DNA of 64,000 nucleotides from Thermoplasmatota archaeon (GTDB lineage Archaea; Thermoplasmatota; E2; JACPAO01; JAHFTW01), in the NCBI GenBank assembly GCA_041601615.1, contig JBFIHX010000003.1, forward strand, positions 128,001 to 192,000, given 5' to 3'. The translations under genes were made by a program, and so were the position numbers. Position 1 is the first letter of the stretch, and the number at the start of each line of letters is the position of its first letter. Positions 7,853 to 59,049 of this stretch are shown one piece after another. The notes under the pieces were generated by a model that saw nothing but the letters and a program-made list of their open reading frames with translations, was not told the origin of the DNA and did no database searches.

Positions 7853-7898
7853 CGAAGCGACGCAGACACATTTTGAGTCAGGCCCGTATGCGGCGCTC

Positions 7899-8789
7899 GT
7901 GGTGCAAGCAGGCGACAGCAAGAAATGGATAGCGACCCTCCTGATGATGGTGGTCGTAGCGCCTCTGGTGGAGGCGGGCCCATTGGATTCTCAACTCGTG
8001 GAACCGGCCACCGTGGTCGCCCCGATTCATGAGCCAACGCTCGCGCAGCCATGGGATGCCAAGGTGTTGGAGTTTGACTTCCTCGCCCCCAACAAGGCCA
8101 ACCTGGTCCAAAACCTCGTCAGCGTGGCTCCTCCGAGCACCCCCCGCGTCATTCCAGACCCGCGGATCATCGAATCCCTCACCAACCCGGTCCGAGAAAT
8201 TCTCTCCATGCAACCGGGCGATGTACTGGAGGCAATTCCCTTCCAGCCGCCACGCAACCTCGAAATGGAAGTTCTCAGCCAATTCTCCATCTCCTTGACC
8301 TGGGAGGAACCCGGATCGGACGGCGCCACCGCATACCGCGTCTACCGCGCCGACTTGCCCAACAAAAATGGCTTGCCCCTCCTTGCCGCCAATCCTCGCG
8401 ACACGGCTTACCGCCCCGAGCCGATTGCAGAAGTTCCCGTCGGGACCACCAGCTACCAGGACGACAGCGTCACACTGGCCGACGAACACTATGCCTACTT
8501 CGTCACCGCCGTGTACGACAACCCGCTGCTCTTGCTGGCAGGATCGGCGCTCGCCCCAGAATCCAATGTGCCGGGAAGCTCCTCTATGGGACTGAGCCCG
8601 AGCATGAACGACGAAGTCGAATCCCTGCCCAGCAATGTCCAATCCACCGTCAACGGCACCGGACCCTGCCCCCCCGTGAACATTTCCTTTGACCCGCTCC
8701 TGGTGTTTGTCCAAGAAGACTGCATTCCGCCTCCGCCTTCCCTCATGGTCTCCGTGCCCAACGGGACCCACGTTCAGGTGAGCATGTGA
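7899..8789 (+). CDS. Secreted fibronectin type III domain protein with C-terminal Cys-loop (module copy 1, gene A)
   Basis: Signal peptide KKWIATLLMMVVVAPLVEA; Fn3 motifs PPRNL..ISLTW..YRVYR..SYQD..YAYFVTAV..ESLPSN; tail CPPVNISFDPLLVFVQEDCI; GTG start approximate. Confidence 0.72.
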   Translation: MVQAGDSKKWIATLLMMVVVAPLVEAGPLDSQLVEPATVVAPIHEPTLAQPWDAKVLEFDFLAPNKANLVQNLVSVAPPSTPRVIPDPRIIESLTNPVREILSMQPGDVLEAIPFQPPRNLEMEVLSQFSISLTWEEPGSDGATAYRVYRADLPNKNGLPLLAANPRDTAYRPEPIAEVPVGTTSYQDDSVTLADEHYAYFVTAVYDNPLLLLAGSALAPESNVPGSSSMGLSPSMNDEVESLPSNVQSTVNGTGPCPPVNISFDPLLVFVQEDCIPPPPSLMVSVPNGTHVQVSM

Positions 8790-10096
8790 AGGTCCTCGCG
8801 CTGCTACTGGTCCTTCTGCTGGCAGCGCCCGTGGCGGTGGCCAACACAAGCGAAGCCCCCCGCGTTGATGTCATCAGCACAGACGAGCCGTTCCGCCTCG
8901 AAGGAACACTGGGTGCCGTGCGCCAATCTCAGTCTGCCTTGACCGAGGCCCCCACCTCCATGCACCTTCTCCTACACGCCGAATCCCTGACGGTCCAGAA
9001 CCGCACCCGCGGCGGTTTCAACGAACTCGTCAGCGTCTCCGGCGACGAAGAAATGGAGACTACCCGATTCCAGGACGCAACCGTCATCGAACACGCGGCT
9101 CGCCAAGGACGGGACGTGTCGATCCACCCCATCGATGCAACGGTCATCCTCGAAGACGAAACAGGAACCTTCTCGCCCAACAGCAAGTCGCACGTGATGG
9201 CCTCCAACAACGTTGTCTTCGACGGCAAACCACTCATCACACCTGTCCACAACAGCACCGAAATCCAAACCACCACTCCCGTCGTCACCGTGCGCGGCGA
9301 CTTCATCGTCAGCCTCTGGGAAATCAGCGTTTGGATCCAAGGCAACCACCGTGGCTGGGACTACTTCTCCGGCGAAACCGACGCCCCCGGAGTCACCAAC
9401 TACACCATCGAAGACGGCATTACGGCGCCCGGCCCAAGCCTCTCCAACTCCACCGAAGTGTACCTCATCGTCCACAACGGCACCCTCCGAATGCAACGGG
9501 CCAACGGCGTTTTTTCTCTGTTTGTCTATGATCCCATTCTCAGCCTCTCCAGCGCAGAACTCTTCGGCGTCTCCGGCAAGCTCCCGGCACAACTGGGCGG
9601 CACCCAAGTGCGCGGCGGCGACCTTCGCCTCGCAGGCGACCTCACCCTGCAGCTCGGTGCCAGCGCCGGCCAACTCTCCTGGGATTTGGAAGGCCAAATC
9701 ACCAATGCAACCCTCAACGGGCAACCACTGGCCGTCGTAGCCCCGCTCCCCGGCGGACGCGCCGTTCGCTCGTGGCTCCCCTGGGCCACCACCGCACTCC
9801 TTCTCGGCATCGCCGCCGCCGGCTTCGTGCCCCTCCACCGTCACAATGCCCGCCGCCGCCTCGAAGACGCAGAACTCCTGTTTGCCGCAGGCCACTTCGA
9901 AGCAGCCGCCGCCGCATCACGGCCACGCATCCTGAGCGGCGTGGGCGCATCCGCCACCGCCATGCGGGTCCAAGCGCTCCTCCACGCTGGCCACATCGAA
10001 GAAGCGCGCCACCTCGCCGCTCGCGCCCGCATCACCGAACCCGGACTGCGAGATCTGGTGCAGCTCTACGTAGGTGACTGGGAGGGCACCGCATGA
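8786..10096 (+). CDS. Single-pass membrane protein: extracellular beta domain + TM + TPR-like tail (module copy 1, gene B)
   Basis: Signal peptide, TM WLPWATTALLLGIAAAGFV, TPR-like AELLFAAGHFEAA / VQALLHAGHIEEA; 4-nt overlaps with both neighbours; paralog of 30350 and 53237. Confidence 0.78.
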   Translation: MKVLALLLVLLLAAPVAVANTSEAPRVDVISTDEPFRLEGTLGAVRQSQSALTEAPTSMHLLLHAESLTVQNRTRGGFNELVSVSGDEEMETTRFQDATVIEHAARQGRDVSIHPIDATVILEDETGTFSPNSKSHVMASNNVVFDGKPLITPVHNSTEIQTTTPVVTVRGDFIVSLWEISVWIQGNHRGWDYFSGETDAPGVTNYTIEDGITAPGPSLSNSTEVYLIVHNGTLRMQRANGVFSLFVYDPILSLSSAELFGVSGKLPAQLGGTQVRGGDLRLAGDLTLQLGASAGQLSWDLEGQITNATLNGQPLAVVAPLPGGRAVRSWLPWATTALLLGIAAAGFVPLHRHNARRRLEDAELLFAAGHFEAAAAASRPRILSGVGASATAMRVQALLHAGHIEEARHLAARARITEPGLRDLVQLYVGDWEGTA

Positions 10097-10569
10097 CCCA
10101 AGACGCTCGTGCCCGACTCATGTCCTTCCTGGAAGAGCGCCCCGGCAGCTGCCTGCAAGACATCGCCAATTATCTCGGCATCGCCCGCACCAGCGCCATC
10201 CACCACGTCCGCGTCTTGCGCAACGACCGCCAAATCGTCACCCAACGCAAAGGCCGCCGCGTCCTACACTTTCCCACCGCCGTCGACGACCGCGTCCACC
10301 GCACCATCCTCGCCACCTGGCGCCTCGACACCGCACGATCCATCCTCCAAGAACTGGAAAAGGACCCCCGCAGCTCCTGGCGCGCCATTGCCCGCAACCT
10401 CCAGATCACCCCCCGCGCCGTGCGCTGGCACCTACAACGATTGGAAGACGACGGCCTCCTCAGCATCCGCCGCACTCCCGATGGGCTGCGCCACGAAGCC
10501 ATCATTCACCCAGGCGTCCGAACACTACGCCTCAACGAGGACCTTGGAAACTGGCCGCCGGGGCGTTGA
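10093..10569 (+). CDS. Tandem winged helix-turn-helix regulator, COG3398-like (module copy 1, gene C)
   Basis: Two wHTH units: R.RLMSFLEERPG..IHHVRVL and ILQELEKDP..VRWHLQRLEDDGLL. Confidence 0.85.
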   Translation: MTQDARARLMSFLEERPGSCLQDIANYLGIARTSAIHHVRVLRNDRQIVTQRKGRRVLHFPTAVDDRVHRTILATWRLDTARSILQELEKDPRSSWRAIARNLQITPRAVRWHLQRLEDDGLLSIRRTPDGLRHEAIIHPGVRTLRLNEDLGNWPPGR

Positions 10570-29912: not shown

Positions 29913-29926
29913 GGAAGGTGAGTCAC

Positions 29927-30346
29927 ATGCGAATCCTGTCTCTGGCCCTCGTCCTCTGCCTCGTTCCGAATGTCATGGCCTCGGGGGACCCAGATGGGGT
30001 CCCGGCCGTTCCCATCGTCCCCGGGACGAATGTGAACCTGCCGGATGCGGACCCAGCCTCGATTCCGGTCTGCCCGAAAGTCGAGGAGCCTGATCCAAGC
30101 TTCCCCCTGCATGGGACCTTTGTGGAAGACTGCATGGTCAAGGCATTCGGCGCCGTAGACACGGTCCTGGAGAAGGACCCGTTCATTGTCTGCACGCCGG
30201 CCCGCATCGGGCGGACCTCCAACATCCCATACTTCGGCGTCAACAAGAATGAGGAGTGCATCGACGACCTTGAGGACGCCGCCCGCGACCTCATCCAAGA
30301 TCCAGAAAGTGGTGTCCCCGGCTTCATCGTCCACTTGGGAGGATGA
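29927..30346 (+). CDS. Small secreted protein with two Cys-loop repeats (module copy 2, gene A)
   Basis: Signal peptide MRILSLALVLCLVPNVMA; CPKV..FVEDCM and CTPA..NKNEECI; GGTGA SD. Confidence 0.75.
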   Translation: MRILSLALVLCLVPNVMASGDPDGVPAVPIVPGTNVNLPDADPASIPVCPKVEEPDPSFPLHGTFVEDCMVKAFGAVDTVLEKDPFIVCTPARIGRTSNIPYFGVNKNEECIDDLEDAARDLIQDPESGVPGFIVHLGG

Positions 30347-30349
30347 TCC

Positions 30350-31867
30350 ATGAGGCGGGCGTCGTGGACCGTTTGCATCGTGCTGGTTCTCTTGCTCGCC
30401 GCTCCTGGCTCCTTGGCTTGGTCGGCTGATCTGCACGCCCGATCCGTCGAGGCCCATGGCAGTTCGAGAACTACAGCGAATCTGCAAGGGCTCTTTTTCG
30501 AGCAGGCCACCGCGGGCGATGCGCGAGGAAACCCCCAGTTCGCCCTGGAAGCCTCGTTTTTGGAAGTGACCGAGGAATACTCCCAGTTCTACGCGCTTGA
30601 CAACATAGTCAACCCCCTAGAGCCCGAACAACGAAGCCTCTACACGGGGCCCGGGCGCATCAAGGGGCTGCAAAACCAAGATGGCTATGCATTGTGGATC
30701 ACGGACGTGGGCCTAACGCCCGCGCGCGTAGAGGTTGAAGAGTCCCGATGCACGAGGCTTGTTCCGTCGGATCACGGTAGCGAGCGCCGATCCTACCACG
30801 TAGCCACGGCCCGCGACGACCTCATCGTGGACACCTCCGATTCCCTCCGGTGGCAGGGCTGCTCCAACGCAACTGTAACGATTCAGGGCGACCTGTCCTT
30901 GACCCTCTGGTACATCGATGCCGCCCTGGAAGGCAACGGCCGATTCATGCGACTGCAAAGTGGCTACGACGTGGATACCATGCCCGACTTTGGCGACCCC
31001 ATCGGAGGCGCTACGAATGCGCGATCGGCACGAGAACACTTCGTGGTGGCCCACAATGCAACCATGACGATTCCGCTGGAGCCCGGCACCTACGAAGCCT
31101 ACCTTCGAGATTCGAGCGTGCGCGGCGGTTCCTTGTTGCTGGTCGAGGCCACCGGTATCCTTGGAGACAATCAAGTATCCGAGGGCAACCTGGAGCTTCG
31201 CGGCGACCTCATGGCGTCGCTCACTTCCAACGCCGAGACCCGTGCCCTGGACGCCAGCATGAACGGCGAATTGGACCGAGCCGAAATGGACGGAGTGCCG
31301 CTTCCGCTTGCCTCCACAAGCATCGCTGCGCCGAAAACCAGTGCCATGCTGCCGTTCCTGCCCTTCCTGTTTGTGCCGCTCCTGGGTTTGGCTCTAGCGT
31401 GGTATGTGGTTCCCCACATCCTGCACGTCCATGTGCGCCGCCACCACCCCGAAGCACGAGCCGCTTCACTGCGCCAGCGCCGCGCTCAAGCGTGGTCTTG
31501 GCTTTCCGACCAAGCGGATGAACGCAGCCACGCATGGACCAGCCTGCTTCTGGCACGCTTTGCCACTTGGAGCCACCCGAACCCGTCGTACCTAGCCCAG
31601 CAAGTCCGGGCCCAGTGCAACCTAGGTCGCGTGGAGGCAGCGCTGCGCACCCATGCCCGCATCGACCGGTGGCTTCAGGGCGACGACCGAAACCGCGCCC
31701 GCAACGCATGGCATGCATACCGCCTGGCCCACCGACACGAGCATCCAGCCGGATCTATCTGGCTGGACCGGTCGCGGCGCTACCACCCAATGGAATTCCT
31801 GGAGTTGTCCAGGGCGTGGCCCACCGCAGTGGGTCGAGACCACGCCCCAGGGATGGGATACGCCTAG
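30350..31867 (+). CDS. Single-pass membrane protein: extracellular beta domain + TM + degenerate TPR (module copy 2, gene B)
   Basis: Signal peptide; VTIQGDLSLTLW..SGY..EHFVVAHNATM; LELRGDL..NGELD.A.MDGVPL; TM; ends GYA. Confidence 0.78.
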   Translation: MRRASWTVCIVLVLLLAAPGSLAWSADLHARSVEAHGSSRTTANLQGLFFEQATAGDARGNPQFALEASFLEVTEEYSQFYALDNIVNPLEPEQRSLYTGPGRIKGLQNQDGYALWITDVGLTPARVEVEESRCTRLVPSDHGSERRSYHVATARDDLIVDTSDSLRWQGCSNATVTIQGDLSLTLWYIDAALEGNGRFMRLQSGYDVDTMPDFGDPIGGATNARSAREHFVVAHNATMTIPLEPGTYEAYLRDSSVRGGSLLLVEATGILGDNQVSEGNLELRGDLMASLTSNAETRALDASMNGELDRAEMDGVPLPLASTSIAAPKTSAMLPFLPFLFVPLLGLALAWYVVPHILHVHVRRHHPEARAASLRQRRAQAWSWLSDQADERSHAWTSLLLARFATWSHPNPSYLAQQVRAQCNLGRVEAALRTHARIDRWLQGDDRNRARNAWHAYRLAHRHEHPAGSIWLDRSRRYHPMEFLELSRAWPTAVGRDHAPGMGYA

Positions 31868-32556
31868 GCCGTGCGAATAGCGAGGTCGTAGCCCGCCGCC
31901 GAGGCTTCCGCGAGTGCCGCTTCCAGGCTTGCTCCGCCTTCGCCCACGTGGACGAGTGTGTTCTGGCAGCAGGAAAGGCCTACGGTGTTGACGACGCCGA
32001 GTGCGAGTTTGCCGGCTTGAATCGCCACGGGTCCGCCCGAATCGCCAGGGGTCACGGGGAATTGGCAGTAGTGCTGGGCACCGTCGTTGTAGGTGAGGGC
32101 TCCAAAGCGGCCTTCACGAGTAGCGGCGGCGTAGCGGTAGCCGGTTCCGTAGCCACTGAATTGGCACACGTCGTCTAGGATCGTGGTGTCGGCTGTGGTG
32201 GCAACACCCTGGGGGTAGCCGGGGTTGCCCTTCATTTCGCCGTCCACGTCGCCCGTGCGGTTGGCGTAGACTTCGATGAGTACGAAATCCAGGCTTGCCG
32301 ATTGCCATGCGACGGTTCCGAAGTTGGCGCTGGGGTCCTTGACGGTGTCTCCGACGCCGCTGACGCAGTGGGCCGCCGTGGTTCCGTACACTTTGCCGGT
32401 GGATTCGTCATCGAAGATCCAGGCGAGGGTACACTGACCCGTGTTGGTCTGGATTTCGATTCCTGGTTGGATGGTGGCTCCCGCGGCACCAGCTACGGGG
32501 CTACCCGTGCCGGCCACGAAGAGAACAAGCGTCACTGCGATGAGCATCGTGCGCAT
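31864..32556 (-). CDS. Secreted trypsin-like serine protease
   Basis: Signal peptide; CTLAW, TAAHC, DFVLI, PGDSGGP. Confidence 0.88.
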   Translation of the reverse strand: MRTMLIAVTLVLFVAGTGSPVAGAAGATIQPGIEIQTNTGQCTLAWIFDDESTGKVYGTTAAHCVSGVGDTVKDPSANFGTVAWQSASLDFVLIEVYANRTGDVDGEMKGNPGYPQGVATTADTTILDDVCQFSGYGTGYRYAAATREGRFGALTYNDGAQHYCQFPVTPGDSGGPVAIQAGKLALGVVNTVGLSCCQNTLVHVGEGGASLEAALAEASAAGYDLAIRTA

Positions 32557-32679
32557 GTGGGGCCGATGCAACTCGCTCGAAATAAGCAGTGTAGCGGCGG
32601 ACCCAATCTGATGAGGAAGGAAAGGGAGAGAACCGGCCGGGAAAGTATGGCCGGGGACGAGGTTTGCTTCAGGCCGGGA

Positions 32680-48913: not shown

Positions 48914-49126
48914 ATGCGCATTCTGCTGCTACTGATGCTCGCACTTCTTCTGCTCGCTCCGTCCGCCCCCGCCATACACAACTGCGTCCAAGCCGGAACC
49001 GATAGCTACTCCGGAGTCTACGCAGGCTGCGACGGCGACTGGTGCGCAGTCAAAGCGGGCACCGACTTCTACGGCGTATACGTTCAAACCACCGACTACC
49101 GCCAGGAATGCCCGGCGAACCCGTAA
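48914..49126 (+). CDS. Small secreted 4-Cys peptide with internal repeat
   Basis: Signal peptide; CVQAGTDSYSGVY / CAVKAGTDFYGVY. Confidence 0.7.
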   Translation: MRILLLLMLALLLLAPSAPAIHNCVQAGTDSYSGVYAGCDGDWCAVKAGTDFYGVYVQTTDYRQECPANP

Positions 49127-49132
49127 GATCCG

Positions 49133-50332
49133 TCAAGCATTGGCCGCGATGCGCACCACATCGCCCGCCTTCAACTCATAATCGGCGCCGATGGTGCGGC
49201 GCGTGCGGCAGTCCACGCCACGAATGAAGTGGTCGCCAAGGTCCGTGTGGACTCGGTACGCCAGTTGCTTCGCCGTGGTGCCTTTGCGAACAAGATGGCA
49301 GTCGGGCAACACCCGGCCGTCCTTGTCCGTAAAATGATGGTCGTCCTCCACGGGATACACTGGGATAAGGCCCAGGTGCCCCAGGACGGCGGCTTCGAGC
49401 GCTGCGTGCACACCCGTCGTGCCAAAGCGGTCCAGCACATGGCTTTGGATGTACTCCATGCCCTTCTTCTGGGCCGGGTTCAGGTCGATTTTGGTCACGA
49501 ACCCATCGCTGCCAGGAACATACTCGAACGCGCCCGCCTGCGCGCCTTTTTGCAACGCAAGTTCGCTCTGCGCACTGACTCGAACACTTGGGATGCTGCG
49601 CTCGGCAAGATGGGCTTCGATGCGCTTGAGTTGCTCCTCCGTGGCAAGATCCGCCTTGTTCAATGCAACCACAATCGGCTTGCTGACACGACGCACCGCC
49701 TTGGCCAACTCCCTGCGCGACTCGACCGTGATGAGTGTAGGAAGCACACCAATCAGGTTTGTATGGCGAAGCGCCGCGTGCGCCATGGGTGCAGTGATCC
49801 CGATGCCAGCAAGCCGCTCTTCGAGGGCAATCTCCATCTTGCGCCCCTCCTGTTGGACCCGGCGCGTCAGTTTCTCCCAGCCATCGGCAAGAATGCCATC
49901 AATCCAGTGATCGATCTCAGCCTCTAGAAACGCAATGTCACCAATCGGGTCGTGGCTGGAAGCCTGGAGCGGATTGCCCTCCTCGTCGGTGCGGCCAGAA
50001 GCATCCACCACATGCACCAAAGCATCCGCCTCGGCAAGATTGCTCAGGAATCGGTTGCCAAGCCCCCGGCCCTCGTGCGCGCCCGGCACAAGCCCCGCCA
50101 CATCCACCAACTCGACGGGGACATACCGCGTTGCGCCGACCACCTTCCCAGACCTCGGCGTAGACGCAACACCCAGCTCCGGCCCAGGGTCCGCCACGCG
50201 AACATAACCGACCCCACGATTGGCATCAATGGTCGTGAACGGATAGTCGCCGATCTCCGCGTCCGCCAGACTCGACGCCGCATAGAACGTAGACTTGCCC
50301 ACATTCGGCTTTCCCACCAGACCGACCTTCAC
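49133..50332 (-). CDS. ychF: Obg-family ATPase/GTPase YchF (archaeal type) with TGS domain
   Basis: GKPNVGKST, YPFTTI, DVAGLVPGAHEGRGLGN.FL, NKAD, TGS VHTD. Confidence 0.93.
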   Translation of the reverse strand: MKVGLVGKPNVGKSTFYAASSLADAEIGDYPFTTIDANRGVGYVRVADPGPELGVASTPRSGKVVGATRYVPVELVDVAGLVPGAHEGRGLGNRFLSNLAEADALVHVVDASGRTDEEGNPLQASSHDPIGDIAFLEAEIDHWIDGILADGWEKLTRRVQQEGRKMEIALEERLAGIGITAPMAHAALRHTNLIGVLPTLITVESRRELAKAVRRVSKPIVVALNKADLATEEQLKRIEAHLAERSIPSVRVSAQSELALQKGAQAGAFEYVPGSDGFVTKIDLNPAQKKGMEYIQSHVLDRFGTTGVHAALEAAVLGHLGLIPVYPVEDDHHFTDKDGRVLPDCHLVRKGTTAKQLAYRVHTDLGDHFIRGVDCRTRRTIGADYELKAGDVVRIAANA

Positions 50333-50415
50333 GCACCGCGCACAGAGCCCGAGTTGAAAGCGGCGCCGGGCAAGCGCCCACAACCCTTATCGGCCATCAG
50401 GAGTCGAGAGACACA

Positions 50416-52608
50416 ATGACACGGTCGGCGCTCGTCGTACTCGTAATCTTGCTGCTCCCCTCCACCCTCGTGGTCCCCGCAGGCGCAGCCGAAGTCCGAG
50501 CCAGCCTATTCACGGACGCCACCGGAGACGTGCAAATCCAAAGCGCCGACGGCGGCGTCTCCCAAGCCGACCCCATGTCCAGCGACAACCTCGACCTCGT
50601 AGGCGGAGGAATCTGGGCCGAAACCGACACCACCGTGACCTTCTTCGTGCACCTTGCAGGCCTCTCCGAAAACAGCCAAGGCGCCCCCTTCACCGACCCC
50701 GACTACACCCTCGACTTCCGCTACCACGGCCAAGGCTACCGCATCAGCATCGTAACCGCCCTCGGCAACCCCATCAACGACGCCTTCGGACGCGACACCA
50801 CCCAAGGCTGGCTGCAAAAAGAAGTCGGCCCCGGCCGCTACCAGAGCGTCGTCGACGCCGAAACCGAACTGGACTTCTCCGAAAACGTCGCCCGCGCCAC
50901 CGTGCCCCGCGACGCCATCGTAGACGAAAACCAAGCCCCCCTTGCCCGCAACGCCACCCTCACCGACGTGCGCGCCACCGCAAGCGCCCTCGGCTTCTTC
51001 GGATTCCCCGTATCCCTCGACGGCAGCGGCTCCGGCCCACGCGTCGGCGCCCCACGGTTCTTTGATCAAGCCCCCGACACAGGCCTCGGCGGCACCTACA
51101 CCATGACCACCGGACAAGTGCGCCAACGCGGCGCCCTGTTTGCCGTTAGCGACGACCCCGTACGCTGGACCAACGGAGAAGCCACCACCCTCACCTTCAC
51201 CGCCCGCCTCACCAACACCGCCAGCAAAGACATGCCCGTCCACGTCACCACCAGCAACGTCGACCCTTCCTGGCAAATCGCCTTCAGCGACGCCCTCACC
51301 GTCGGCGCAGGCCGCAGCATCAACGCAACTCTTCTCGTCACCATCCCCTTTGTGCACCAACACGGAATCCTGCGCCAATTCAACGCCGAATTCACCTCCA
51401 CCGACGGGCAAAGCCTCGCCGCCGTCCCCCTCGGCATCTACTGGGCCGAAGTACCCCAACCCGCCGGCCACCACGACACCGTCTGGTTCCACGGCCTCAC
51501 CCAAGAAGTCACCCCGCCCTTCAACGCCGTCTTCGGCGGCACCCACGGATGGTTCAGCGCCAAAGAAGAAGTAGACGGAGACGAACGCAAACCGATCCCC
51601 GCCAACTTCGCCATGGTGCCCAGCCCCGCCACCAACAACCGCGGCATCGCCTTCTGGAGCTTCAGCCTCGAACCATCCCTACGCATGGGCCTCGACTTCC
51701 TCCTCGACGAACAAGGAGCCGCCGACATCACTCTCGACCTCGCGACCCCCGCCCTCGACCCCAGCATCAAAGTCCAAGTCTACTACCTCGAGCAACGCGC
51801 CCTCGACACCGGCGACAACCGGCCCGGACAACGCAACACCATCACTGAACGCACCCTCCTAGCCGAAGGCGTCAGCGAAGTCAAAAGCGGCACCATCAGC
51901 GGCCCCCAACTCTTCGAAGTGCCCATCCAAGCACTCGCCGAAGCCGAAATCATCCCCTACGGCGGCGACGGCAACCTGTACATCCAAGTGCTCCTCGACA
52001 GCACCTTCCTTCTCGGCACCGGCTTCGTCGCCAACGACGCCACCGCACCCAGCCTCGATCCACTCGCCTCCCGCGTGCGCCTCCCCCTCGAAGAATACCA
52101 CGACCCCGTCGACCTAAGCTTCCAAACCGACGGCAGCCTCAGCATCAAAGCCGGCCCCGACGGCCAAGACCGCCTCATCAACCCCGGCCGAACCATCGTC
52201 TACACCTTCGACCTCACCTACGCAGGCGCCTCCCCCGCCACCTTCCAAGCCCAACTCAGCGGCGCCAACGTCCAATGGGCCACCATCCTCGGCGACAAAC
52301 AGTTTGACCTAGCCCCCGGCGCCCAACGCAGCCTCGCCGTCTCCGTCCACGCCCCAGACGACGCCCGCGAAGGAGACGCAAGCGACCTAACCCTACGCGT
52401 CACCAACACCGCAAACGCAGCCATCCAAGCCGGCATCAACCTACGCACCCTCGTCACCACCAGCCAAGACATCCCAGACGAAGCCGGACGCGGCAGCGAA
52501 CTCGACGGCGAACTCAGCCAAAGCAAAGAAAGCCCCGGCCCCGGCCTTGTCCTGCTCCTCGCCGCCGTTGCTGCCCTGGCCATCGCCCAGCGCCGACGCC
52601 GCAACTAA
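50416..52608 (+). CDS. Surface protein, His-motif family copy 3 with an extra Ig-like domain and ESPG-TM-RRR tail
   Basis: DATGDV, RWTNGEAT, PFVHQHG, QPAGHH..WFH, LEPSL.MG, LPLEEYHD, ESPG+TM+RRRR. Confidence 0.82.
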   Translation: MTRSALVVLVILLLPSTLVVPAGAAEVRASLFTDATGDVQIQSADGGVSQADPMSSDNLDLVGGGIWAETDTTVTFFVHLAGLSENSQGAPFTDPDYTLDFRYHGQGYRISIVTALGNPINDAFGRDTTQGWLQKEVGPGRYQSVVDAETELDFSENVARATVPRDAIVDENQAPLARNATLTDVRATASALGFFGFPVSLDGSGSGPRVGAPRFFDQAPDTGLGGTYTMTTGQVRQRGALFAVSDDPVRWTNGEATTLTFTARLTNTASKDMPVHVTTSNVDPSWQIAFSDALTVGAGRSINATLLVTIPFVHQHGILRQFNAEFTSTDGQSLAAVPLGIYWAEVPQPAGHHDTVWFHGLTQEVTPPFNAVFGGTHGWFSAKEEVDGDERKPIPANFAMVPSPATNNRGIAFWSFSLEPSLRMGLDFLLDEQGAADITLDLATPALDPSIKVQVYYLEQRALDTGDNRPGQRNTITERTLLAEGVSEVKSGTISGPQLFEVPIQALAEAEIIPYGGDGNLYIQVLLDSTFLLGTGFVANDATAPSLDPLASRVRLPLEEYHDPVDLSFQTDGSLSIKAGPDGQDRLINPGRTIVYTFDLTYAGASPATFQAQLSGANVQWATILGDKQFDLAPGAQRSLAVSVHAPDDAREGDASDLTLRVTNTANAAIQAGINLRTLVTTSQDIPDEAGRGSELDGELSQSKESPGPGLVLLLAAVAALAIAQRRRRN

Positions 52609-52684
52609 ACAAGCCAACAGCGGACACGGCCGCGGCACAAAAACGGCAAGAAACGCCGACCGTTCCTCGATTCGGAGACCCTAA

Positions 52685-53215
52685 TCAAGCCACGTCGATG
52701 CCTTCCGGCATCGCCGGGCTCGGATCCAACAACTCCGTCAGACCCTCGTCCGCAAAGTAGCGATTCGTTTGCAAGCCCTTCTGCTCCGCAACCAACCCCG
52801 CATCCACAAGGGGCGCAATGCTGGCACGGAACGTCTTACGAGAAACACTCACCGCAGTACAGACATCCACCTGACGACTGCCCGGGTGATCTTGGATGAA
52901 GCGAGCAATCTCCTGGCGGCGACCCTGATTCAAGACACCCATAATCTGGGCCCGCTCAGGATCAATGCCGCCCACGAAAAAGCGGCGCTCGCGGCCCGCA
53001 GAAACCGCCGTCACAAGGTCGCCCTTGTCAAGTAGCGCAAGGTGGTACTGCACCGTACCCCAAGCTTCCCCGGACTCCCTGCACAAAGCACTGGCATGGA
53101 TTCCAGGCCGAAGCTGGATCAAATCTAGGATACGACGGCGCACCGGCTGGGCAAGCAGTGCATCAGGGTCCGCGTCATGAACCCGAGCAAACAGCATCAA
53201 CAGTGCCTCGAACAT
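52685..53215 (-). CDS. Tandem winged helix-turn-helix regulator, COG3398-like (module copy 3, gene C)
   Basis: RRRILDLI..RPGI...GTVQYHL..L; second unit I..HPG...LVDAGLV..RYF. Confidence 0.87.
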   Translation of the reverse strand: MFEALLMLFARVHDADPDALLAQPVRRRILDLIQLRPGIHASALCRESGEAWGTVQYHLALLDKGDLVTAVSAGRERRFFVGGIDPERAQIMGVLNQGRRQEIARFIQDHPGSRQVDVCTAVSVSRKTFRASIAPLVDAGLVAEQKGLQTNRYFADEGLTELLDPSPAMPEGIDVA

Positions 53216-53236
53216 CCGGGGCTCCCATCCACCTTC

Positions 53237-54754
53237 TCAGGTATAACCGTGTGCGTCGCTCTCTAGAGCTTGCGCCATGGAAGGGGCCGGAGCGACGTAT
53301 CCAGGAACCTGGTCTGCCAACGCGGGCGTGCGCTTCACGGCCTCCGCAAGGGCCGACTGGGCCCGGTTGTTCTTGCCCATGTCGCGGTACGCAAGGCCCA
53401 GGACATAGTGCAGGGTGCCATCGGAAGGGTCGTTGCCGTTGAGGTACGACTCAAGATTGCGAACGACACGCTCAGGCTGCCCCGTGCGAGAGAGGGCAAT
53501 GGCGCGACCCAGATGTGCGCTCTCGCGCTTCGGGTCCTCGCGTAGAATTCGAGTAGCAAGCCGAGCAGCACGCGTGAACGCACCTGCCTCCAGCGCCTGC
53601 TCCATGTACTCCAAGGGAGGAGCCACGTCGCGGCGTGAACGGATGATGAATGCGATGGCCGCCCCAAGAACGAGGAGAGTCACGATCGGCCAAGCCACGA
53701 ATCCCGCGGGCTTGTACCAGGAAGAAGATTGTCCGAATCCCTCGTTGGAGCTGCTGGAGAAATCCATGCCCAAGCGGTGGGAATCGTCCGGAACGAGCGT
53801 GCCCGAGTACCCCTCAGTAAAGAGGAGTTCAGACTCGTGCGAGCCATCCACTCCATCGTACGAAATTCGACCGTTGTCGCCGTTCACTTCGACGTCCTCG
53901 GATACCCATTGAACGATGTGGTTGATGCCGCTGAGTCGAATGCGGAGATCGCCGTCCGTGACAATCAGTCGAAGGTGCGATTCGCGGCCCTGCGTGACTC
54001 CACCAACGAGTTCTGTGTGGGTCAAGCCCGTATCGTAGGAGTTGGGCGCCGTGTCATCGGAGTCCAAGTTCACCGTGGGGCCCAAAATCTCGAGAATGAA
54101 ATCGCCGAGAATGCGAGCATCCACGACGCCGCCGATGGTCTCCGTGAGCACCGTGGGCTCCGTAATGGAGCGGCGCAAGAAGGTTCGCGTATCTCCGGTG
54201 GACGCCGAGTCTTGATCAACAGAGTTCGGGTCGCGCTCCACGAGTCCTTCCGAGGTGGAAAGGAACTGCGCTTGCGGAAGGGAAGAGTAGTTGCTGACGC
54301 CGCGCACCATGCTGTGGATGGTGCCGCCTTCGCCATTGCGGCTGATGCGCACATCAAAGGATGGCGACGAGCCCTTGGATTGGAGTGTGATGCTGTTCAG
54401 TGGATTTGCTTCGCTAGCGATGGACTCTGAAGGGTCAAGTGGCGTTTGTTCCGGGAGATTTGCCTCCACGGGACCAAGCGTTCCGTTTGCAGATCGCAAG
54501 TAGGTCCGCTCGAGGTAGTGACCCCAACCGCTTGCGGCGGAGAGCTCCAAAAGAGGCGCGCCGTAGCCGTCCTCCGCTGCGATACGGAACAAGCCAAGAT
54601 CTCCTTTCTGCTTCATGACTCCGTGATGCTGCATGGCAGTGGCATCCTCCGAGAGAATGTCAATTGCCTTGGCTGCGTCTACGGAAGGTGCTGCCATAAG
54701 AAGCACCGTGAGAAGAACGGTGGTGCGGATGACAGGGTTTCCTTGACGTAGCAT
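53237..54754 (-). CDS. Single-pass membrane protein: extracellular beta domain + TM + TPR (module copy 3, gene B)
   Basis: Signal peptide; ILGDFILEI..YDTG..RESHLRLIVTDGDL; TM; clear TPR AHLGRAIAL..G, LHYVLGLAY..MG..A..AL..A; ends GYT. Confidence 0.82.
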   Translation of the reverse strand: MLRQGNPVIRTTVLLTVLLMAAPSVDAAKAIDILSEDATAMQHHGVMKQKGDLGLFRIAAEDGYGAPLLELSAASGWGHYLERTYLRSANGTLGPVEANLPEQTPLDPSESIASEANPLNSITLQSKGSSPSFDVRISRNGEGGTIHSMVRGVSNYSSLPQAQFLSTSEGLVERDPNSVDQDSASTGDTRTFLRRSITEPTVLTETIGGVVDARILGDFILEILGPTVNLDSDDTAPNSYDTGLTHTELVGGVTQGRESHLRLIVTDGDLRIRLSGINHIVQWVSEDVEVNGDNGRISYDGVDGSHESELLFTEGYSGTLVPDDSHRLGMDFSSSSNEGFGQSSSWYKPAGFVAWPIVTLLVLGAAIAFIIRSRRDVAPPLEYMEQALEAGAFTRAARLATRILREDPKRESAHLGRAIALSRTGQPERVVRNLESYLNGNDPSDGTLHYVLGLAYRDMGKNNRAQSALAEAVKRTPALADQVPGYVAPAPSMAQALESDAHGYT

Positions 54755-54759
54755 ACGAA

Positions 54760-55248
54760 TCAGTAGGTTTGGATGTAGATCCGGCTGGGTTTGTTCTGCT
54801 TGAATACTTGGGCGAAACCATCGAGGTCGGTCTCCGGTACAAGGGACCAAATCGTTTCAAGGTTCACGCAAGCGTCCAGATTGTAGACGACAAGGTCCGC
54901 GATGATGCTCGGGACCAACGCTACAGGACTGTAGTAGGTCACGGCCGAGAGGACCGAGTAGATGTTTGCGAGATTCAAGGTGATGCAGGTCGGTTCCTTG
55001 TTGCTGGAATCGTCGTATGCTTCGGGGTTGTTCGTGAGAATCTGAACGTCCCCGACTTGGACCATGGTTGCACCAGACATGCATGGTCCAAACTCGGTAC
55101 AATCGTCCGTGAAGAGGTCCACATCAATGAAGATGGGTTGGAGGTCCACTCGGAGCTCTGTTAGCTCCATGGGCTCCGCCTGGACGGGGGCCGCCACAGC
55201 CAAGAGCATGAGTGGTATGAGCGCGTTTCTGACACCGATTCGGGACAT
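54760..55248 (-). CDS. Small secreted 4-Cys protein (module copy 3, gene A)
   Basis: Signal peptide ending VQA; CTEFGPC and CITL...VVYNLDACV; GGTGG SD. Confidence 0.75.
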   Translation of the reverse strand: MSRIGVRNALIPLMLLAVAAPVQAEPMELTELRVDLQPIFIDVDLFTDDCTEFGPCMSGATMVQVGDVQILTNNPEAYDDSSNKEPTCITLNLANIYSVLSAVTYYSPVALVPSIIADLVVYNLDACVNLETIWSLVPETDLDGFAQVFKQNKPSRIYIQTY

Positions 55249-55336
55249 GGAATCCACCTGAACAAACCGTCGATGGATGCGGCCGGGTAAAAGTGTTCGC
55301 GACGTATCCGCGGTATCTAGTGATATTTGGCTCATC

Positions 55337-55369
55337 TATCGGCCCAAAAGCACCATATCGGCCCTAAAG
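55337..55369. promoter_or_regulatory. 14-bp direct repeat upstream of module copy 3
   Basis: TATCGGCCCAAAAG (55337-55350) and TATCGGCCCTAAAG (55356-55369). Confidence 0.45.
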
Positions 55370-55789
55370 AACTGGATAATGCAGAACCTCCCCGTCTGCT
55401 TTATGCCATTGACAGTCATGGAGGCGCTGTAAGGCCGTGTGCTTGGCGCCGTTCTGGTGCTAGGCAGTACACGACAACCACCCACCACCACCAATCGCTT
55501 TGAACTTTCAAAGCGCACCATCGCGGCCTTACGTTCCGGGGCGGGGGCTTGCCTCCGTCCCGGGGCCCAAACTTTGTGATTGCCTTCGTGCAAATGTTGG
55601 CGTTTTGACCTCATGCGCGCTTAGACGCGAGCTGGGTGGATGCTCCGCTGGTTGCTCGTGGTGCGGCGCGACTTGTGGCGCGGGCAGGGTCCCGTCGAGG
55701 ACGGAATGAGAAAACAAAGGTAGAGGGAAGGGAAAGGACGGCGCAGCGCGCCGGATACGAAATCGGAAAGCGAAATCCGAGCAGTGCGC

Positions 55790-56428
55790 CTATTGGCGTC
55801 GCTTCTCGGCTTGCTTTTCCTTCTTCCAGATCAGCTTGTCCTTCTGGCGGCGACCGGACTTGGCAACCGAAGGACGCAGGTGCTCGGCACCCTTACCCTT
55901 GTTGCCAACAAGGCCACGGTGCTTCTTACCGGCGCTGGTCTTGCCGCGCAGCACACGGTTGGTGGCCGGGCGGGTGCAGATCCAGGACAGGTCCTTGTCG
56001 GCACGGATGCTGGGGTGGAAGGGGTCGACGAGGATGACCTCGTAGTAGTGGTGCTTACCGTCGGCACCGACCCAGTAGGAGTTGAGAACTTCCAGGTTCG
56101 GGAAGTGCTTGCTGGTGCGCACTTCGGCGATCGCCTGGGTGTTCTGCTTCATAGTGATCTTCTTGACACCCATCTTGCTGGGCACACGACCACCGTCGAA
56201 GCGCTTCTTGCGCAGACCACCGCGGCGAACGCGGGCGCGCACGACGATGACGCCCTGCTTGGCCTTGTAGCCGAGGTTGCGGGCGCGGTCGAGGCGCAGG
56301 GGCTTGTCGACGCGAACGAAGGATTCACCCTCACGCCACTCAATCAGACGGTGCCACTGGGGGCTGTCGTGACTGGTGTCAGGTTGTTTCCAAGCTTCTC
56401 CGATGTAAGAATATGCACTCTTGCTCAT
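55790..56428 (-). CDS. rpl15e: 50S ribosomal protein L15e
   Basis: SAYSYI.EAW, WR, P.RLDRAR.LGYKAKQG, RVRRGG, NLEVLNSYWVG.DG, EVILVDP, RG.TSAG. Confidence 0.97.
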   Translation of the reverse strand: MSKSAYSYIGEAWKQPDTSHDSPQWHRLIEWREGESFVRVDKPLRLDRARNLGYKAKQGVIVVRARVRRGGLRKKRFDGGRVPSKMGVKKITMKQNTQAIAEVRTSKHFPNLEVLNSYWVGADGKHHYYEVILVDPFHPSIRADKDLSWICTRPATNRVLRGKTSAGKKHRGLVGNKGKGAEHLRPSVAKSGRRQKDKLIWKKEKQAEKRRQ

Positions 56429-56510
56429 ACGCGATTCACCTCGCGGATTTCCCGGTTCACCCTATGCTCTATGGCGGCGGGCACATTCCAGGACAGCCTA
56501 AGCTGCAAGT
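56429..56510 (-). ncRNA. Putative eL15 ribosomal-protein leader (cis-regulatory RNA)
   Basis: 5' UTR contains GGAAUGUG ... GUGAACC before the GAGGUGA SD, resembling the eL15-Euryarchaeota leader as recalled; not verified by covariance search. Confidence 0.5.
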
Positions 56511-56636
56511 CTCGCCGACAAAGGTATGCTATAAGAAGATGTTCCGGGCGCAGCGGAGGATTGGGGGAGGCGGGGGCAAAGGGGGTGGGTGAAGGGAAAG
56601 GGTGAGGGGGGGGGCGGACGGCGGATGAGCGTTCTG

Positions 56637-56864
56637 CTAGGCTCGGACGATTTTCGAAGCGAAACTGGCCGCCTTGCTGCCGGCTGCAAGATCCACGGTG
56701 TGTTCCTTGTATGTGAGGCTGAGCAGGGTGCCGCGCGCTTCGGCGCCGAGCTGCGAGAACGGCACGGTGGCTTTGATGGCGCCTCGAAACACCACGGCGT
56801 CGGCCTGGATGTCGGCTTTCATTTTGGCGCCCGTGCCGCGTAGGATGCCGGTGAGTTCGACCAT
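56637..56864 (-). CDS. Small hypothetical protein
   Basis: 75-aa ATG ORF, globular composition, same strand as and just downstream of the SRPBCC gene. Confidence 0.55.
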   Translation of the reverse strand: MVELTGILRGTGAKMKADIQADAVVFRGAIKATVPFSQLGAEARGTLLSLTYKEHTVDLAAGSKAASFASKIVRA

Positions 56865-56916
56865 GCAGCGGCGAGGCTGCGGCCGTTATGAGAGGTTTCT
56901 GTGGATTGGCCGGGGT

Positions 56917-57318
56917 TCAGCCGTTGGCGAGCAGTGCTGCGAGTTTGTCGAAGCCGGCGCCCCATGCGCCGCGCATGTGGTCGTGCGAGTCGGCGGGGAC
57001 TCCGTCCATGCCGAGCACCATGCGGGTGCCGGTTTCGGTGGGTTCGAGCAGCGTTTCGATGAGAAATTGCTTGTCGGGGGTACCCTGAACCAATCGGCGG
57101 GGCGCGTCGATGGCGTGGAAGATGCCTTCGTCGATGTGGTCGCCGTTGGGGCCGACCATGACGCGGCGGTAGGCTCCACCTTGGCGTAAGTCTAAGGATT
57201 CCACGCGGCAGTCGTTGGGGCCGGGACTGTACCACTTGGAAAGGAGGGCTGGTTCGGTCCATGCGGCCCAAACGCGGTCGATGGGGGCTGCAAATTCGCG
57301 TTCCATGCTGAAATCCAT
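56917..57318 (-). CDS. SRPBCC/AHSA1-like domain protein
   Basis: REFAAP..RVW.AWTEP..L.KW, DLR.GG, P.RLV, GT.M, W...DKL..LL. Confidence 0.88.
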   Translation of the reverse strand: MDFSMEREFAAPIDRVWAAWTEPALLSKWYSPGPNDCRVESLDLRQGGAYRRVMVGPNGDHIDEGIFHAIDAPRRLVQGTPDKQFLIETLLEPTETGTRMVLGMDGVPADSHDHMRGAWGAGFDKLAALLANG

Positions 57319-57654
57319 GCTGCGGCGACGTCGGGAGTTGGCTATGGTCCTGTTGTACGAGGTCGGCGAAAGCACGTGTCTTGATTCCCGGGTCATTGAC
57401 TCATGGATGCCTGCCAAATCAAAGAAAGATTGGGGTGGAGTAATTCAATTTCCCTTGTGAAAAAGTGTCACATTGTCCCGCGATTTGCTTCTATTTGGCG
57501 CCGACATGAGGAGGGGGCTACGGGCAAAATCGATTTAGAAAATATACACGGCCCCAACCAGGGGGGTGTAAAATGACAGCACTTAGAGTCAAAATGAGTG
57601 CAAACCCTGAACCAGCGGGATAGATACTATTTATGAGATAATTCTGGGCCGTTT

Positions 57655-59049
57655 ATGAAGTGGCAAACTGCCGCGTTGATGCTCAGCCTCCTGGTGCCCC
57701 TGGCGGGTGCCGGATCCGCAACCGATCCTGAACTCTCGGACCCCGCAGGTGACGCACATCAGTTCATCGAGTGTGTCCCCCCAAGTTGTCTCTCCGGCGT
57801 CTACGAACCCAGTTCGGAGGCAAGCGAGCAAGTGGACATCCTCGCGTCTTGGTTTGCCCTTGAAAACGGTACCCTGAGCGTCTCCATGCAGACTGTCGCC
57901 GAAACAGACGACGAAGTGTACACGACTTTCGCCTTCGATGTGGAAGCAACGCCGTTTAGCGCCTCGGACAACGACACGCGGTCCCCCGTCGTCCTGGAAG
58001 CCAAGGGCACCACCACGATCACCGGCACCAACGTCACTTGGGTTCGCAACGGCACCGTACTCACTGCCTCCTTGCCCATGCAAGACGCCGGCATGGTCGC
58101 TGGAGACCGCCTCGTTCGCCTCCAAGTGTCCACGGAGCGCTCAGAAAGCAGCAGTGAATCGCTTGGACAAGGCTCCCAGAAAGACACAGACGCCACCGAC
58201 GGCACCTCCAGACCCTTCTACGCCCCGGTGGCCGCAGGCGAGCCGGATTTCCAAGTCACAGCCCGCAACGGCACCTACAGCCAAAGTGGTACGGAACAGA
58301 ATTTCACTGGGTCCAACCCCTGGTTCGATGCCGTGCCGGACAGCATCACCTTCTCGTACCAGATTCTCAGCCACCAGCCCGGGTCCAACTTCACGGTCCA
58401 AGAAAACGGCGCCGAGGCACGCAAGGTCACCACGGACGAGGCCGGCGTGGCACATGTGAATGCAACCATCGGCCCAAGCGACCTTGATGGTCGCACCTGG
58501 AGCGTCCAAGTCACCCATGCCGGGCACACCACCACGCTTGCTTGGCTCTTGGGCGGCCACGCCTTTGATCCGCTCTACGCGGACGGTTTGAGCATCGAAG
58601 GCCTCGGCGGCAACTGGACCCTTGGCAACACCACGACGGAATTCGAGGACAAAGTGCTGATCGGAAAGGTTCTGCCGGACAACATCACGGTCTCGTACCG
58701 CATCCACAACAACCTGCCTTTGGCCAATCTCACGGTCGAATACGTGGGCTACAACACCACGGTGCAAGTGGACGTTCTGCAGTACAGCAACAAGACCTTG
58801 AGCTGGACCTTCCAGCCCATGGTCAACGCCACGAGCCTAGAAATCCAAGTTCGCAACGCCGATGGCCAGAACGCAACCTACACGCTGGTGTTCGAGGAGG
58901 ACACCGGCAACAAGGGAGGCGAAGGCGGCTCCAACAAGGAGGAGTCCGTTCAAACCAGTGCCAACCTCGTTTCTCCGGTCGTGTGGGTGTTCCTCCTCGT
59001 CGGCGTCGTGATCATGGTCGTACTCGTGATCCTGGTTGCGCGCAAGTAG
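57655..59049 (+). CDS. Surface glycoprotein with C-terminal TM anchor
   Basis: Signal peptide, N-terminal DPAGD..VDI domain, more than ten N-x-T sequons, TM + RK end. Confidence 0.8.
   Translation: MKWQTAALMLSLLVPLAGAGSATDPELSDPAGDAHQFIECVPPSCLSGVYEPSSEASEQVDILASWFALENGTLSVSMQTVAETDDEVYTTFAFDVEATPFSASDNDTRSPVVLEAKGTTTITGTNVTWVRNGTVLTASLPMQDAGMVAGDRLVRLQVSTERSESSSESLGQGSQKDTDATDGTSRPFYAPVAAGEPDFQVTARNGTYSQSGTEQNFTGSNPWFDAVPDSITFSYQILSHQPGSNFTVQENGAEARKVTTDEAGVAHVNATIGPSDLDGRTWSVQVTHAGHTTTLAWLLGGHAFDPLYADGLSIEGLGGNWTLGNTTTEFEDKVLIGKVLPDNITVSYRIHNNLPLANLTVEYVGYNTTVQVDVLQYSNKTLSWTFQPMVNATSLEIQVRNADGQNATYTLVFEEDTGNKGGEGGSNKEESVQTSANLVSPVVWVFLLVGVVIMVVLVILVARK

Follow-up and report, generated by a model that had tools for sequence, protein, structure and literature searches.

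The window considered here is a stretch of 64,000 nucleotides from the genome of an uncultured marine archaeon of the Thermoplasmatota (2.79 Mb in 30 contigs), of which it represents positions 128001–192000 of the third contig, written C3 in locus names. It carries three related gene modules, and the third of them is the focus of the present analysis: the co-directional genes A3 (54760–55248, 162 residues), B3 (53237–54754, 505 residues) and C3 (52685–53215, 176 residues), all on the minus strand and each defined as an open reading frame (ORF) with its translation, encode respectively a small secreted protein, a bitopic membrane protein with a tail of tetratricopeptide repeats (TPRs) and a tandem winged helix-turn-helix (wHTH) protein. 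As read directly from the sequence, the TGA of A3 (54760–54762) is separated by 5 nt (ttcgt) from the ATG of B3 at 54754, and the TGA of B3 (53237–53239) by 21 nt from the ATG of C3 at 53215; the start of A3 at 55248 (MSRIG...) was chosen over a longer ORF from 55335, because this ATG and the sequence downstream of it are kept in the same-genus genome used for comparison with the window (G002), whereas the upstream extension is not. In a consensus scan, the sigma-70-type promoter part of which was disregarded given that the host is an archaeon, so that it served for hairpin/T-run sites alone, a hairpin with a T-run was matched by pattern at 52647–52669 (minus strand), directly after the C3 stop, and is the likely end of the operon; the same scan found no terminator-like site in either intergenic gap and one weak match inside B3 (54704–54722). 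Upstream of A3 and on the same strand lies rpl15e (55790–56428), with a 541-nt spacer between the two. Our reading is that A3, B3 and C3 form one operon, as the short gaps, the lone terminator-like site after C3 and a conserved TATA-like box (see below) suggest.

The AlphaFold2 (AF2) model of B3, with a mean predicted local distance difference test (pLDDT) of 84.3, comprises a signal peptide (residues ~1–27), an all-beta ectodomain (residues ~28–335, window 53720–54673), one transmembrane (TM) helix only (residues 354–375), and a cytoplasmic domain of seven helices and three TPRs (residues 381–482), the tail as a whole corresponding to window 53240–53635. The TPR helices are modelled with a pLDDT mostly of 94–97 over residues 381–480; the tail passes the Pfam family TPR_19 (30.2 bits against a cut-off of 25, residues 387–429), other TPR models staying below their cut-offs, and it superposes on three-repeat (CTPR3-type) proteins in Foldseek (prob 1.0, root-mean-square deviation (rmsd) 1.6–1.9 Å) and in VIA (Z 15–16, rmsd 1.7–2.5 Å over 106–113 residues; for example, Z 16.0 and 1.9 Å over 109 residues). 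Both by sequence and by the superhelix of its model, the tail is thus assigned to the TPR repeat superfamily. In an alignment of 22 sequences it is the best-conserved part of B and contains nearly all the invariant residues (E385, E411, A413, A420, G425, D445, G446, L448, Y450, G453, A472, T476, P477, L479 and Y504), and invariant residues line the concave groove of the TPR domain. The disordered end of the protein (residues 492–505; window 53240–53281, minus strand) terminates in ..GY[A/T], with Y504 invariant in the 22 sequences, and 6 of the 18 B-family members of the same genome whose tails were inspected end in xYA, xYS or xYT; this C-terminal Tyr motif could be a docking signal, a degradation signal, or a ligand of the protein's own TPR groove. 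As for the ectodomain, a flavivirus E-like fold was considered and rejected (Foldseek matches at prob ~0.1 and TM ~0.07), the protein atlas gave no usable match, and the VIA matches listed for B3 all cover residues 364–504, so that the ectodomain is barely sampled by them; single-sequence tblastn and jackhmmer searches found no paralogue of it in the genome, the B family surfacing through the orthologue profile only.

C3 is predicted to be cytoplasmic, with a first wHTH at residues ~21–86 and a second at ~97–155. It passes PF24266 (HTH_HVO_0163_N; 48.3 bits against a cut-off of 31, residues 25–86), a family that is also precomputed for nearly all the listed C3 orthologue clusters (about 115 at 54% identity or more, all of them Thermoplasmatota-type metagenome records), and it matches HTH_24 (in two stretches), HTH_20 and MarR_2, with weaker matches at residues 97–153. 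The ArsR/SmtB family NF033788 (36.9 bits, cut-off 55) and the SdpR autorepressor family NF033789 (25.7 bits, cut-off 100) are both scored below threshold, C3 being ArsR-like in the sense of a common fold class; against solved structures the C profile retrieves only generic ArsR/GntR-type wHTH proteins (best 5duk_A, 8.5e-9; 2p4w_A, 6e-4 over residues 21–165). Residues W52, G53, T54, Y57, H58 and R75 are invariant, E76, R77 and R78 are kept at 90% or more, and R126, K127 and R130 are again invariant. C3 has no hydrophobic segment, and therefore lacks the combination of TM segment and DNA-binding domain in one chain by which transmembrane transcription regulators are defined.

A3 has a signal-peptide-like N-terminus (...AVAAPVQA/EP) and four Cys residues in its mature part. 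It is an orphan protein: no family was found for it in Pfam or NCBIfam, no usable match in the protein atlas and no paralogue in its own genome by single-sequence tblastn or jackhmmer queries, and among 1.84 billion representative proteins it has three relatives besides itself, a fourth match (E 1e-3) being a protein of 636 residues. Its AF2 model, based on a four-row alignment, is unusable (pLDDT 39.2). The orthologue in G002 is 38% identical, and beyond the genus A is undetectable by sequence similarity. Of the 10 B paralogues retrieved in the first round, 9 are immediately preceded by a small ORF whose N-terminus resembles a signal peptide, and so are 6 of 12 (possibly 9 of 12) B3 orthologues; no mutual similarity was detectable among the A proteins of different modules, and A1 and A3 have in common only this position and this type of N-terminus. 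Taken together, the ORFs, junctions and domain calls agree with the initial annotation of the locus, which had read it from the DNA alone as a secreted protein-TPR receptor-tandem wHTH operon with 5-nt and 21-nt gaps; both of its domain assignments, namely the TPR repeats of this copy (TPR_19 above cut-off, Foldseek prob 1.0, VIA Z 15–16) and the tandem wHTH (PF24266 above its gathering threshold), are borne out.

A physical connection between the receptor and the regulator is suggested by a model of the complex between C3 and residues 374–505 of B3, which scores 0.61 against 0.00 for the best of three controls; the score mark applied is reached by 58 of 80 solved complexes and by 2 of 110 mismatched pairs, both counts applying only roughly here, since our own alignments were used. 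The runs agree in at least 90% of the contacts and the pLDDT of the partner is at least 79. On the side of B, the predicted contacts lie in the TPR groove (residues 385, 411, 420, 445–447, 450, 476 and 479), where conservation is modestly enriched (11/28 interface residues versus 20/104 elsewhere, Fisher p 0.04); on the side of C3, they involve residues 50–58, at the start of helix 3 of the first wHTH, and 72–77, in the wing, the helix 3 and wing being assigned from Pfam HTH alignments. The model supports binding of the B tail to the first wHTH of C3.

The pairing of the two proteins is one instance of a much larger pattern in this genome. By jackhmmer on six-frame ORFs (score 79 or more), the C family counts 45 full-length paralogues in the 2.79 Mb, while a profile of the B3 orthogroup found 10 B paralogues at the first pass and, once iterated, 20 ORFs (first-detection E 2e-62 to 1.5e-5), 19 of which are counted as the B family, the remaining one being a soluble TPR-only protein. 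A C gene follows immediately in seven of the 19 B members and ~2 kb downstream in three; one member is itself fused to a wHTH, and eight have no C gene nearby. The window contains A1-B1-C1, A2-B2 without a C gene, and A3-B3-C3: the first copy (7737–10569, plus strand) has 4-nt overlaps between its genes, B1 (8786–10096) matching the B3-orthogroup profile at E 6e-14 and C1 (10093–10569) belonging to the same wHTH family as C3; the second consists of A2 (29924–30346, plus) and B2 (30350–31867, plus; profile E 3e-10), and is followed by a convergent ORF (31864–32571, minus) read as trypsin-like. A second layout occurs at G000:C13:59836-64097, C23:436-4504 and C20:10771-14821 of the same genome, where a small secreted ORF and a B gene are followed ~1.8–2.1 kb downstream by a C gene, B and C being on the same strand with other ORFs between them. 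On the C tree, the nearest paralogue of C3 is the partner of the best paralogue of B3 (Shimodaira-Hasegawa-like approximate likelihood ratio test (SH-aLRT) 87, not starred), which suggests that the B-C pair was duplicated as a unit.

A different arrangement of the same parts is found in 13–15 of the 45 C paralogues, which are single ORFs composed of a signal or TM segment, an ectodomain of ~300 residues, a TM segment and a tandem wHTH (loci L033–L042, e.g., G000:C29:37-1566, C4:200516-201991, C26:1290-2852, C7:85121-86563, C9:40551-42038 and C3:342756-344273). Pfam wHTH matches follow the second TM segment in all 10 of the fused paralogues tested, and their ectodomain has no Pfam family. Directly upstream (gap -90 to +1 nt) of 6 of 15 fused regulators there is an ORF of 266–293 residues in which a hydrophobic N-terminal stretch is followed by a Cys motif (five times xGC, once a lone C), and these six ORFs are read as lipoprotein-like. 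When the B3-orthogroup alignment (22 sequences) was compared by hhalign with six fused paralogues, the two matched at 96.9% (E 1.4e-10, 284 columns), ectodomain to ectodomain (B 16–327 with fused 10–304); since the two ectodomains are homologous, the same sensor domain appears either welded to a regulator or equipped with a TPR tail and accompanied by a separate regulator gene. On this reading, which we adopt, the split module is a split form of the single-chain transmembrane wHTH regulators that abound in the same genome.

Of 24 other genomes in the same family, 18 contain a match to the B3 protein, and there are weak matches in 2 of 4 genomes of a second family and none in 12 genomes of six other families; with the B profile, matches extend to 32 of the 38 genomes of the order. 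At 12 loci from 12 related genomes, the C3 orthologue follows the B3 orthologue in every case, C being 53–90% and B 27–55% identical to the window proteins. The order in the family is B-C-[730-aa gene]-GTPase; at 4 of the 12 loci, the gene of the 730-residue surface protein separates C from the GTPase gene. The adjacency of rpl15e to A is limited to the genus of the window (the window and L017); at 10 of the 11 other loci rpl15e was matched past the GTPase gene, at the end away from A, and at L020 no match was found in the stretch examined, while a gene read as spt5/nusG-like is present upstream in at least 10 of these 11. Compared pairwise among 13 genomes, C proteins are on average 59% identical, B tails 48% and B ectodomains 19%, and within the genus C (90%) and the tail (88%) compare with 43% for the ectodomain and 38% for A, neighbouring genes being at 75–92%. 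It is the outward-facing sequence that evolves fast, and not the content of the locus. B1 has a clear orthologue in the same genus only (48%), and B2 none above 31% (in 31 family genomes), so that copies 1 and 2 are the labile ones; copy 3, syntenic in the family where the other two are poorly conserved, is the most conserved copy of the window and is read as a stable ancestral module, vertically inherited in the family.

When the window is compared with G002, the rpl15e-A3 spacer shows blocks of conserved sequence. One of the conserved stretches (55287–55317, minus strand) is probably the promoter region of the operon; it comprises a TATA-like CTTTTAC (55287–55293), 40 nt before the A3 ATG, and, directly upstream of this box, a direct repeat GATAC-N4-GATAC (55304–55317). 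In other genera the alignment gives the form GATA..GG(A/T)AAC..CCTTTTA. The repeat is a candidate operator and, being non-palindromic, it would suit a monomer with tandem wHTH domains. Divergent from the operon, on the plus strand, is a candidate small RNA gene (55400–55576), whose TATA-like TTTATGCC (55400–55407) lies ~110 nt beyond that of the operon promoter and points in the opposite direction; an invariant, single-stranded 16-mer, ACGACAACCACCCACC (55471–55486), is placed between a 5' hairpin and a small hairpin followed by a GC-rich terminal hairpin. The plus strand folds with a z of -4.3 (0/200 shuffles as stable) and the minus strand with a z of -1.9. No Rfam family is present in the window at gathering score, nor at E of 1 or below in 55200–55850; when the upstream region was aligned, crudely, with MAFFT, RNAalifold derived no meaningful consensus fold from either strand (-0.62 and -2.28 kcal/mol), and a hairpin of differing sequence stands 5' of the motif in 9 of 9 loci, each folded alone. 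The 17-nt motif could have marked a regulon, yet a search of the genome at up to one mismatch returned this locus alone. In the order, the RNA motif is single-copy in 12 of 38 genomes, in 10 of which it lies 500–850 nt upstream of, and opposite to, the B3 orthologue; we read the candidate small RNA as a companion of the operon that stayed with it even when a rearrangement placed rpl15e alongside, and it is a plausible, though unproven, output of C3. In G018 (same family, ~91% complete) the 16-nt motif is found at C22:20382-20397, although searches with the B3 protein and with the B profile were both negative there; the assembly may lack the operon, or else the RNA can exist independently of it.

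The initial annotation had also regarded the triad as an exchangeable cassette of distinct composition, to be swapped at a locus beside rpl15e, and had argued from its recurrence 45 kb away that it is a selected functional unit. Part of this description stands. The recurrence involves homologous proteins (B1, at E 6e-14, and C1) and not architecture alone, and the notion of a functional unit is strongly supported by the B-C adjacency at 12 of 12 loci, the many recurrences, the fusion of ectodomain and wHTH, and the complex model. The triad is, moreover, less GC-rich and less skewed than the gene at 50416 (GC 0.546 in A3, 0.598 in B3 and 0.597 in C3, against 0.652 in that gene and 0.617 in the genome), but this is no sign of exchange: GC at third codon positions (GC3) is ordinary (0.71, 0.68 and 0.65, i.e., the 42nd, 27th and 17th percentile of 987 long ORFs), and the compositional outlier is the neighbour, with a GC3 in the 89th percentile and a strongly negative GC skew in the 2nd. 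The contrast visible by eye is explained by an unusual 730-residue neighbour and not by the triad, a lesson in method for compositional "islands" recognized in this way. That a mobile element of foreign composition is exchanged at this place is accordingly highly improbable in our estimate, even though its low total GC relative to the neighbour, the very fast divergence of A and of the B ectodomain within the genus when compared with that of the neighbouring genes, and the poor conservation of paralogous modules 1 and 2 could all be cited for it. As to presence, absence and swapping of alleles, orthologous B and C genes are found at 12 of 12 loci, with C well conserved across the family, and it is the adjacency of rpl15e that is confined to the genus; no tRNA is present within the window, no integrase, repeat or tRNA flanks the locus, and mobility genes were not noticed among the ORFs of 49000–58000, where no systematic search was made. 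Contigs from four DNA runs of one study, which hide rare variants, show 0 differences in the pieces listed over the triad, the 40 differences listed being all at 55986–56315 (rpl15e), with 77 further ones of unlisted position, some of which may fall in the triad. Finally, B and C diverge in parallel, their distances being correlated (Mantel r 0.84, p 2e-4), as is expected from shared descent alone.

We tentatively propose, at somewhat less than an even chance, that A3, B3 and C3 work together as a transmembrane switch of three parts, B being an anti-transcription factor that holds C at the membrane, with A outside. According to this proposal, B3 would be a single-pass sensor whose fast-evolving, beta-rich ectodomain faces outward, and its cytoplasmic three-TPR domain would grip C3 in the cell by the DNA-reading face of the first winged helix, so that C3 would be kept off DNA. 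A3, whose translation would be coupled to that of B3, would act from outside the cell upon the B3 ectodomain, be it as co-sensor, protector or ligand; a change in this domain, following ligand binding, loss of A or proteolysis, would free or re-capture C3, and the freed C3 would then act on the promoter region common to the operon and the divergent candidate small RNA.

Several points weigh against this proposal. All the evidence presented here is computational, and the complex score expresses the model's own confidence, TPR grooves being promiscuous binders of helices and peptides. The C side of the interface is not significantly enriched in conserved residues (11/24 versus 48/152, p 0.17), and the invariance of its residues could be explained by DNA binding alone. 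The correlation of B and C distances cannot be taken as a sign of interaction, because shared vertical descent by itself gives r 0.84. The B tail may have other partners, since 8 of the 19 B members without a nearby C gene still keep helical, TPR-like tails; conversely, about 25 C paralogues stand without a B gene, and the label "B-associated" is not significantly clustered on the C tree (a value as low in 72 of 500 shuffles). A fused B(TPR)-C protein, or longer relatives of C3, did not score in a set of 5.8 billion proteins, in a word-based and hence weak search. Contact between A and B is conjectural, and so is the passage of a signal through a single TM helix.

The principal rival to sequestration is a split regulator that is active while tethered: the TPR tail would recruit C3, and the B-C complex would bind DNA and activate or repress at the membrane, C3 being active when bound. 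In the fused paralogues a few residues separate the TM segment from the wHTH, so the module evidently functions at the membrane in this lineage, and the B ectodomain is homologous to theirs; the basic helix of the second wHTH, with R126, K127 and R130, is not part of the predicted interface and could remain free to read DNA, and transmembrane regulators have been documented in archaea (Demey et al. 2023, PMC10269533, consulted in part). On the other hand, with the beginning of the recognition helix and the wing of the first wHTH covered by the predicted interface, half of the DNA-reading surface would be blocked, a separate and releasable C gene would be a needless complication for permanent tethering, and the fused proteins may themselves be released by proteolysis; we consider this alternative possible, though rather doubtful. 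Still less likely, in our judgement, is the absence of any physical coupling, in which case C3 would be a local autoregulator of a cell-surface operon (for adhesion, envelope structure or nutrient capture) and the TPR tail would bind something else. Regulators are commonly encoded beside their targets, the eight B-family genes lacking a nearby C keep helical tails, and the neighbourhood contains other large secreted proteins (50416–52608 and 57655–59049); yet a homologous ectodomain is fused elsewhere to the same type of wHTH, which argues for signalling over simple co-regulation, conservation is much higher in the TPR tail than in the ectodomain, and the complex model passes its controls. Of the two neighbouring proteins, both encoded on the plus strand, it may be added that they have a C-terminal TM anchor and a basic end, and that the 730-residue product of 50416–52608 shows a match to the Ig-like domain FixG_C and a sub-threshold MYXO-CTERM-like end.

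The sequestration proposed for C3 finds a close functional parallel in the sigmaE-RseA-RseB system of E. coli, composed of an extracytoplasmic function (ECF) sigma factor, a single-pass anti-sigma factor and a periplasmic modulator. In both cases three co-transcribed parts provide a cytoplasmic factor, a bitopic protein and a secreted protein acting on its outer domain (as we suppose for A3), the cytoplasmic domain of the bitopic protein covers the functional surface of the factor (as predicted for B), and many parallel modules are present per genome. There is, however, no homology: the factor is here a tandem ArsR-type wHTH and not a sigma-70 protein, its holder a three-TPR domain and not an anti-sigma domain, and the gene order is secreted protein-sensor-factor; release by regulated proteolysis is conjectural here, and the likeness is functional only. 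Indeed, no sigma or anti-sigma family is among the Pfam and NCBIfam matches of A3, B3 and C3, and archaea are not known to have sigma factors. In the SdpC-SdpI-SdpR system of Bacillus subtilis, a secreted protein and a membrane protein are combined with an ArsR-family repressor that is sequestered at the membrane, and the resemblance to a secreted protein, a membrane receptor, an ArsR-type wHTH and a putative membrane sequestration is evident; C3 differs from SdpR in being a tandem wHTH and in scoring far below the threshold of that family (25.7 versus 100 bits), and SdpI is reportedly a multi-pass protein without TPRs. The tail of B3 superposes on three-repeat TPR domains that bind peptides or partners, such as Hop/Sti1 TPR1/2A/2B, CHIP, Sgt2 and the class II chaperones of type III secretion systems; these are soluble co-chaperones, however, and a common fold shows no common function. 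None of them is known as the cytoplasmic tail of a single-pass receptor that has a transcription factor as its partner.

A second group of comparable systems is that of the membrane-tethered regulators. ToxR/ToxS and VtrA/VtrC are described as fast-evolving cassettes with homology in the twilight zone, in which a membrane-tethered wHTH is combined with a fast-evolving extracytoplasmic protein whose gene abuts or overlaps its own (Kinch et al. 2022, PMC9214523, consulted in part). The fused paralogues described above, together with their upstream lipoprotein-like gene, closely resemble such co-component systems as far as the consulted part of that paper describes them; these, however, come from bacteria and carry their OmpR-type wHTH at an N-terminus that lies inside, the C-terminus being outside, whereas the fused paralogues have the N-terminus outside and a tandem ArsR-type wHTH at the C-terminus, and C3 is a separate protein, docked, as predicted, through TPRs. 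The topology of the VtrA/VtrC-ToxR/ToxS superfamily (N-terminal OmpR-type wHTH, TM segment, periplasmic domain) is absent here, no OmpR-type family being among the Pfam matches; as to the lipocalin-like co-component encoded by an overlapping gene in that superfamily, the present locus has an abutting gene for a secreted protein (5-nt gap), for which such a fold would be conjectural, given the pLDDT of 39.2 of the A3 model. Transmembrane transcription regulators (TTRs) have been surveyed in archaea, with 4 ± 2 per genome, and share with the present system the coupling of a DNA-binding domain to the membrane (Demey et al. 2023, PMC10269533, same part). C3, which has no TM segment, falls outside the TTR definition, but the 13–15 fused paralogues elsewhere in the genome, with an ectodomain homologous to that of B3, fall within it; compared with the survey, 13–15 fused regulators of one family, in addition to the split forms, represent a lineage-specific expansion. 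The main text of the survey, supplements aside, mentions neither TPR nor ArsR nor Thermoplasmatota. As far as these comparisons go, no component appears homologous to the sigma/anti-sigma, Sdp or ToxR/VtrA systems, and the resemblance is functional.

In the open-access library searched, supplementary files aside, no archaeal system was found described in which a receptor with a TPR tail is paired with a wHTH regulator. The kind of system is a known one, in which a transcription factor is controlled at the membrane and an extracytoplasmic co-component takes part; new are its parts and its large expansion in one archaeal order. The transfer of signals from the membrane to transcription is poorly known in archaea, and two-component systems are sparse in many of their lineages. 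It is conceivable, though we hold it to be a rather long way from probable, that the main outside sensing of this order consists of undescribed modular transmembrane pathways (~19 sensors and 45 regulators), with a split form built on a TPR anti-transcription factor and a secreted hypervariable partner, and with a small RNA carrying a 16-nt single-stranded seed as the output of the ancestral copy. The gradient of divergence, in which the secreted partner is the fastest, followed by the ectodomain, and the TPR tail and the regulator are the slowest, points to the outward-facing parts as the place where specificity evolves, and the conserved candidate small RNA on the divergent side may be a direct output. 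If the proposal is correct, the locus would provide a concrete three-protein pathway with predicted interface residues on both partners, an archaeal and non-homologous counterpart of ECF sigma/anti-sigma signalling, and the genome-wide family of ~19 sensors and 45 regulators in 2.8 Mb would represent a lineage-specific solution analogous to it.

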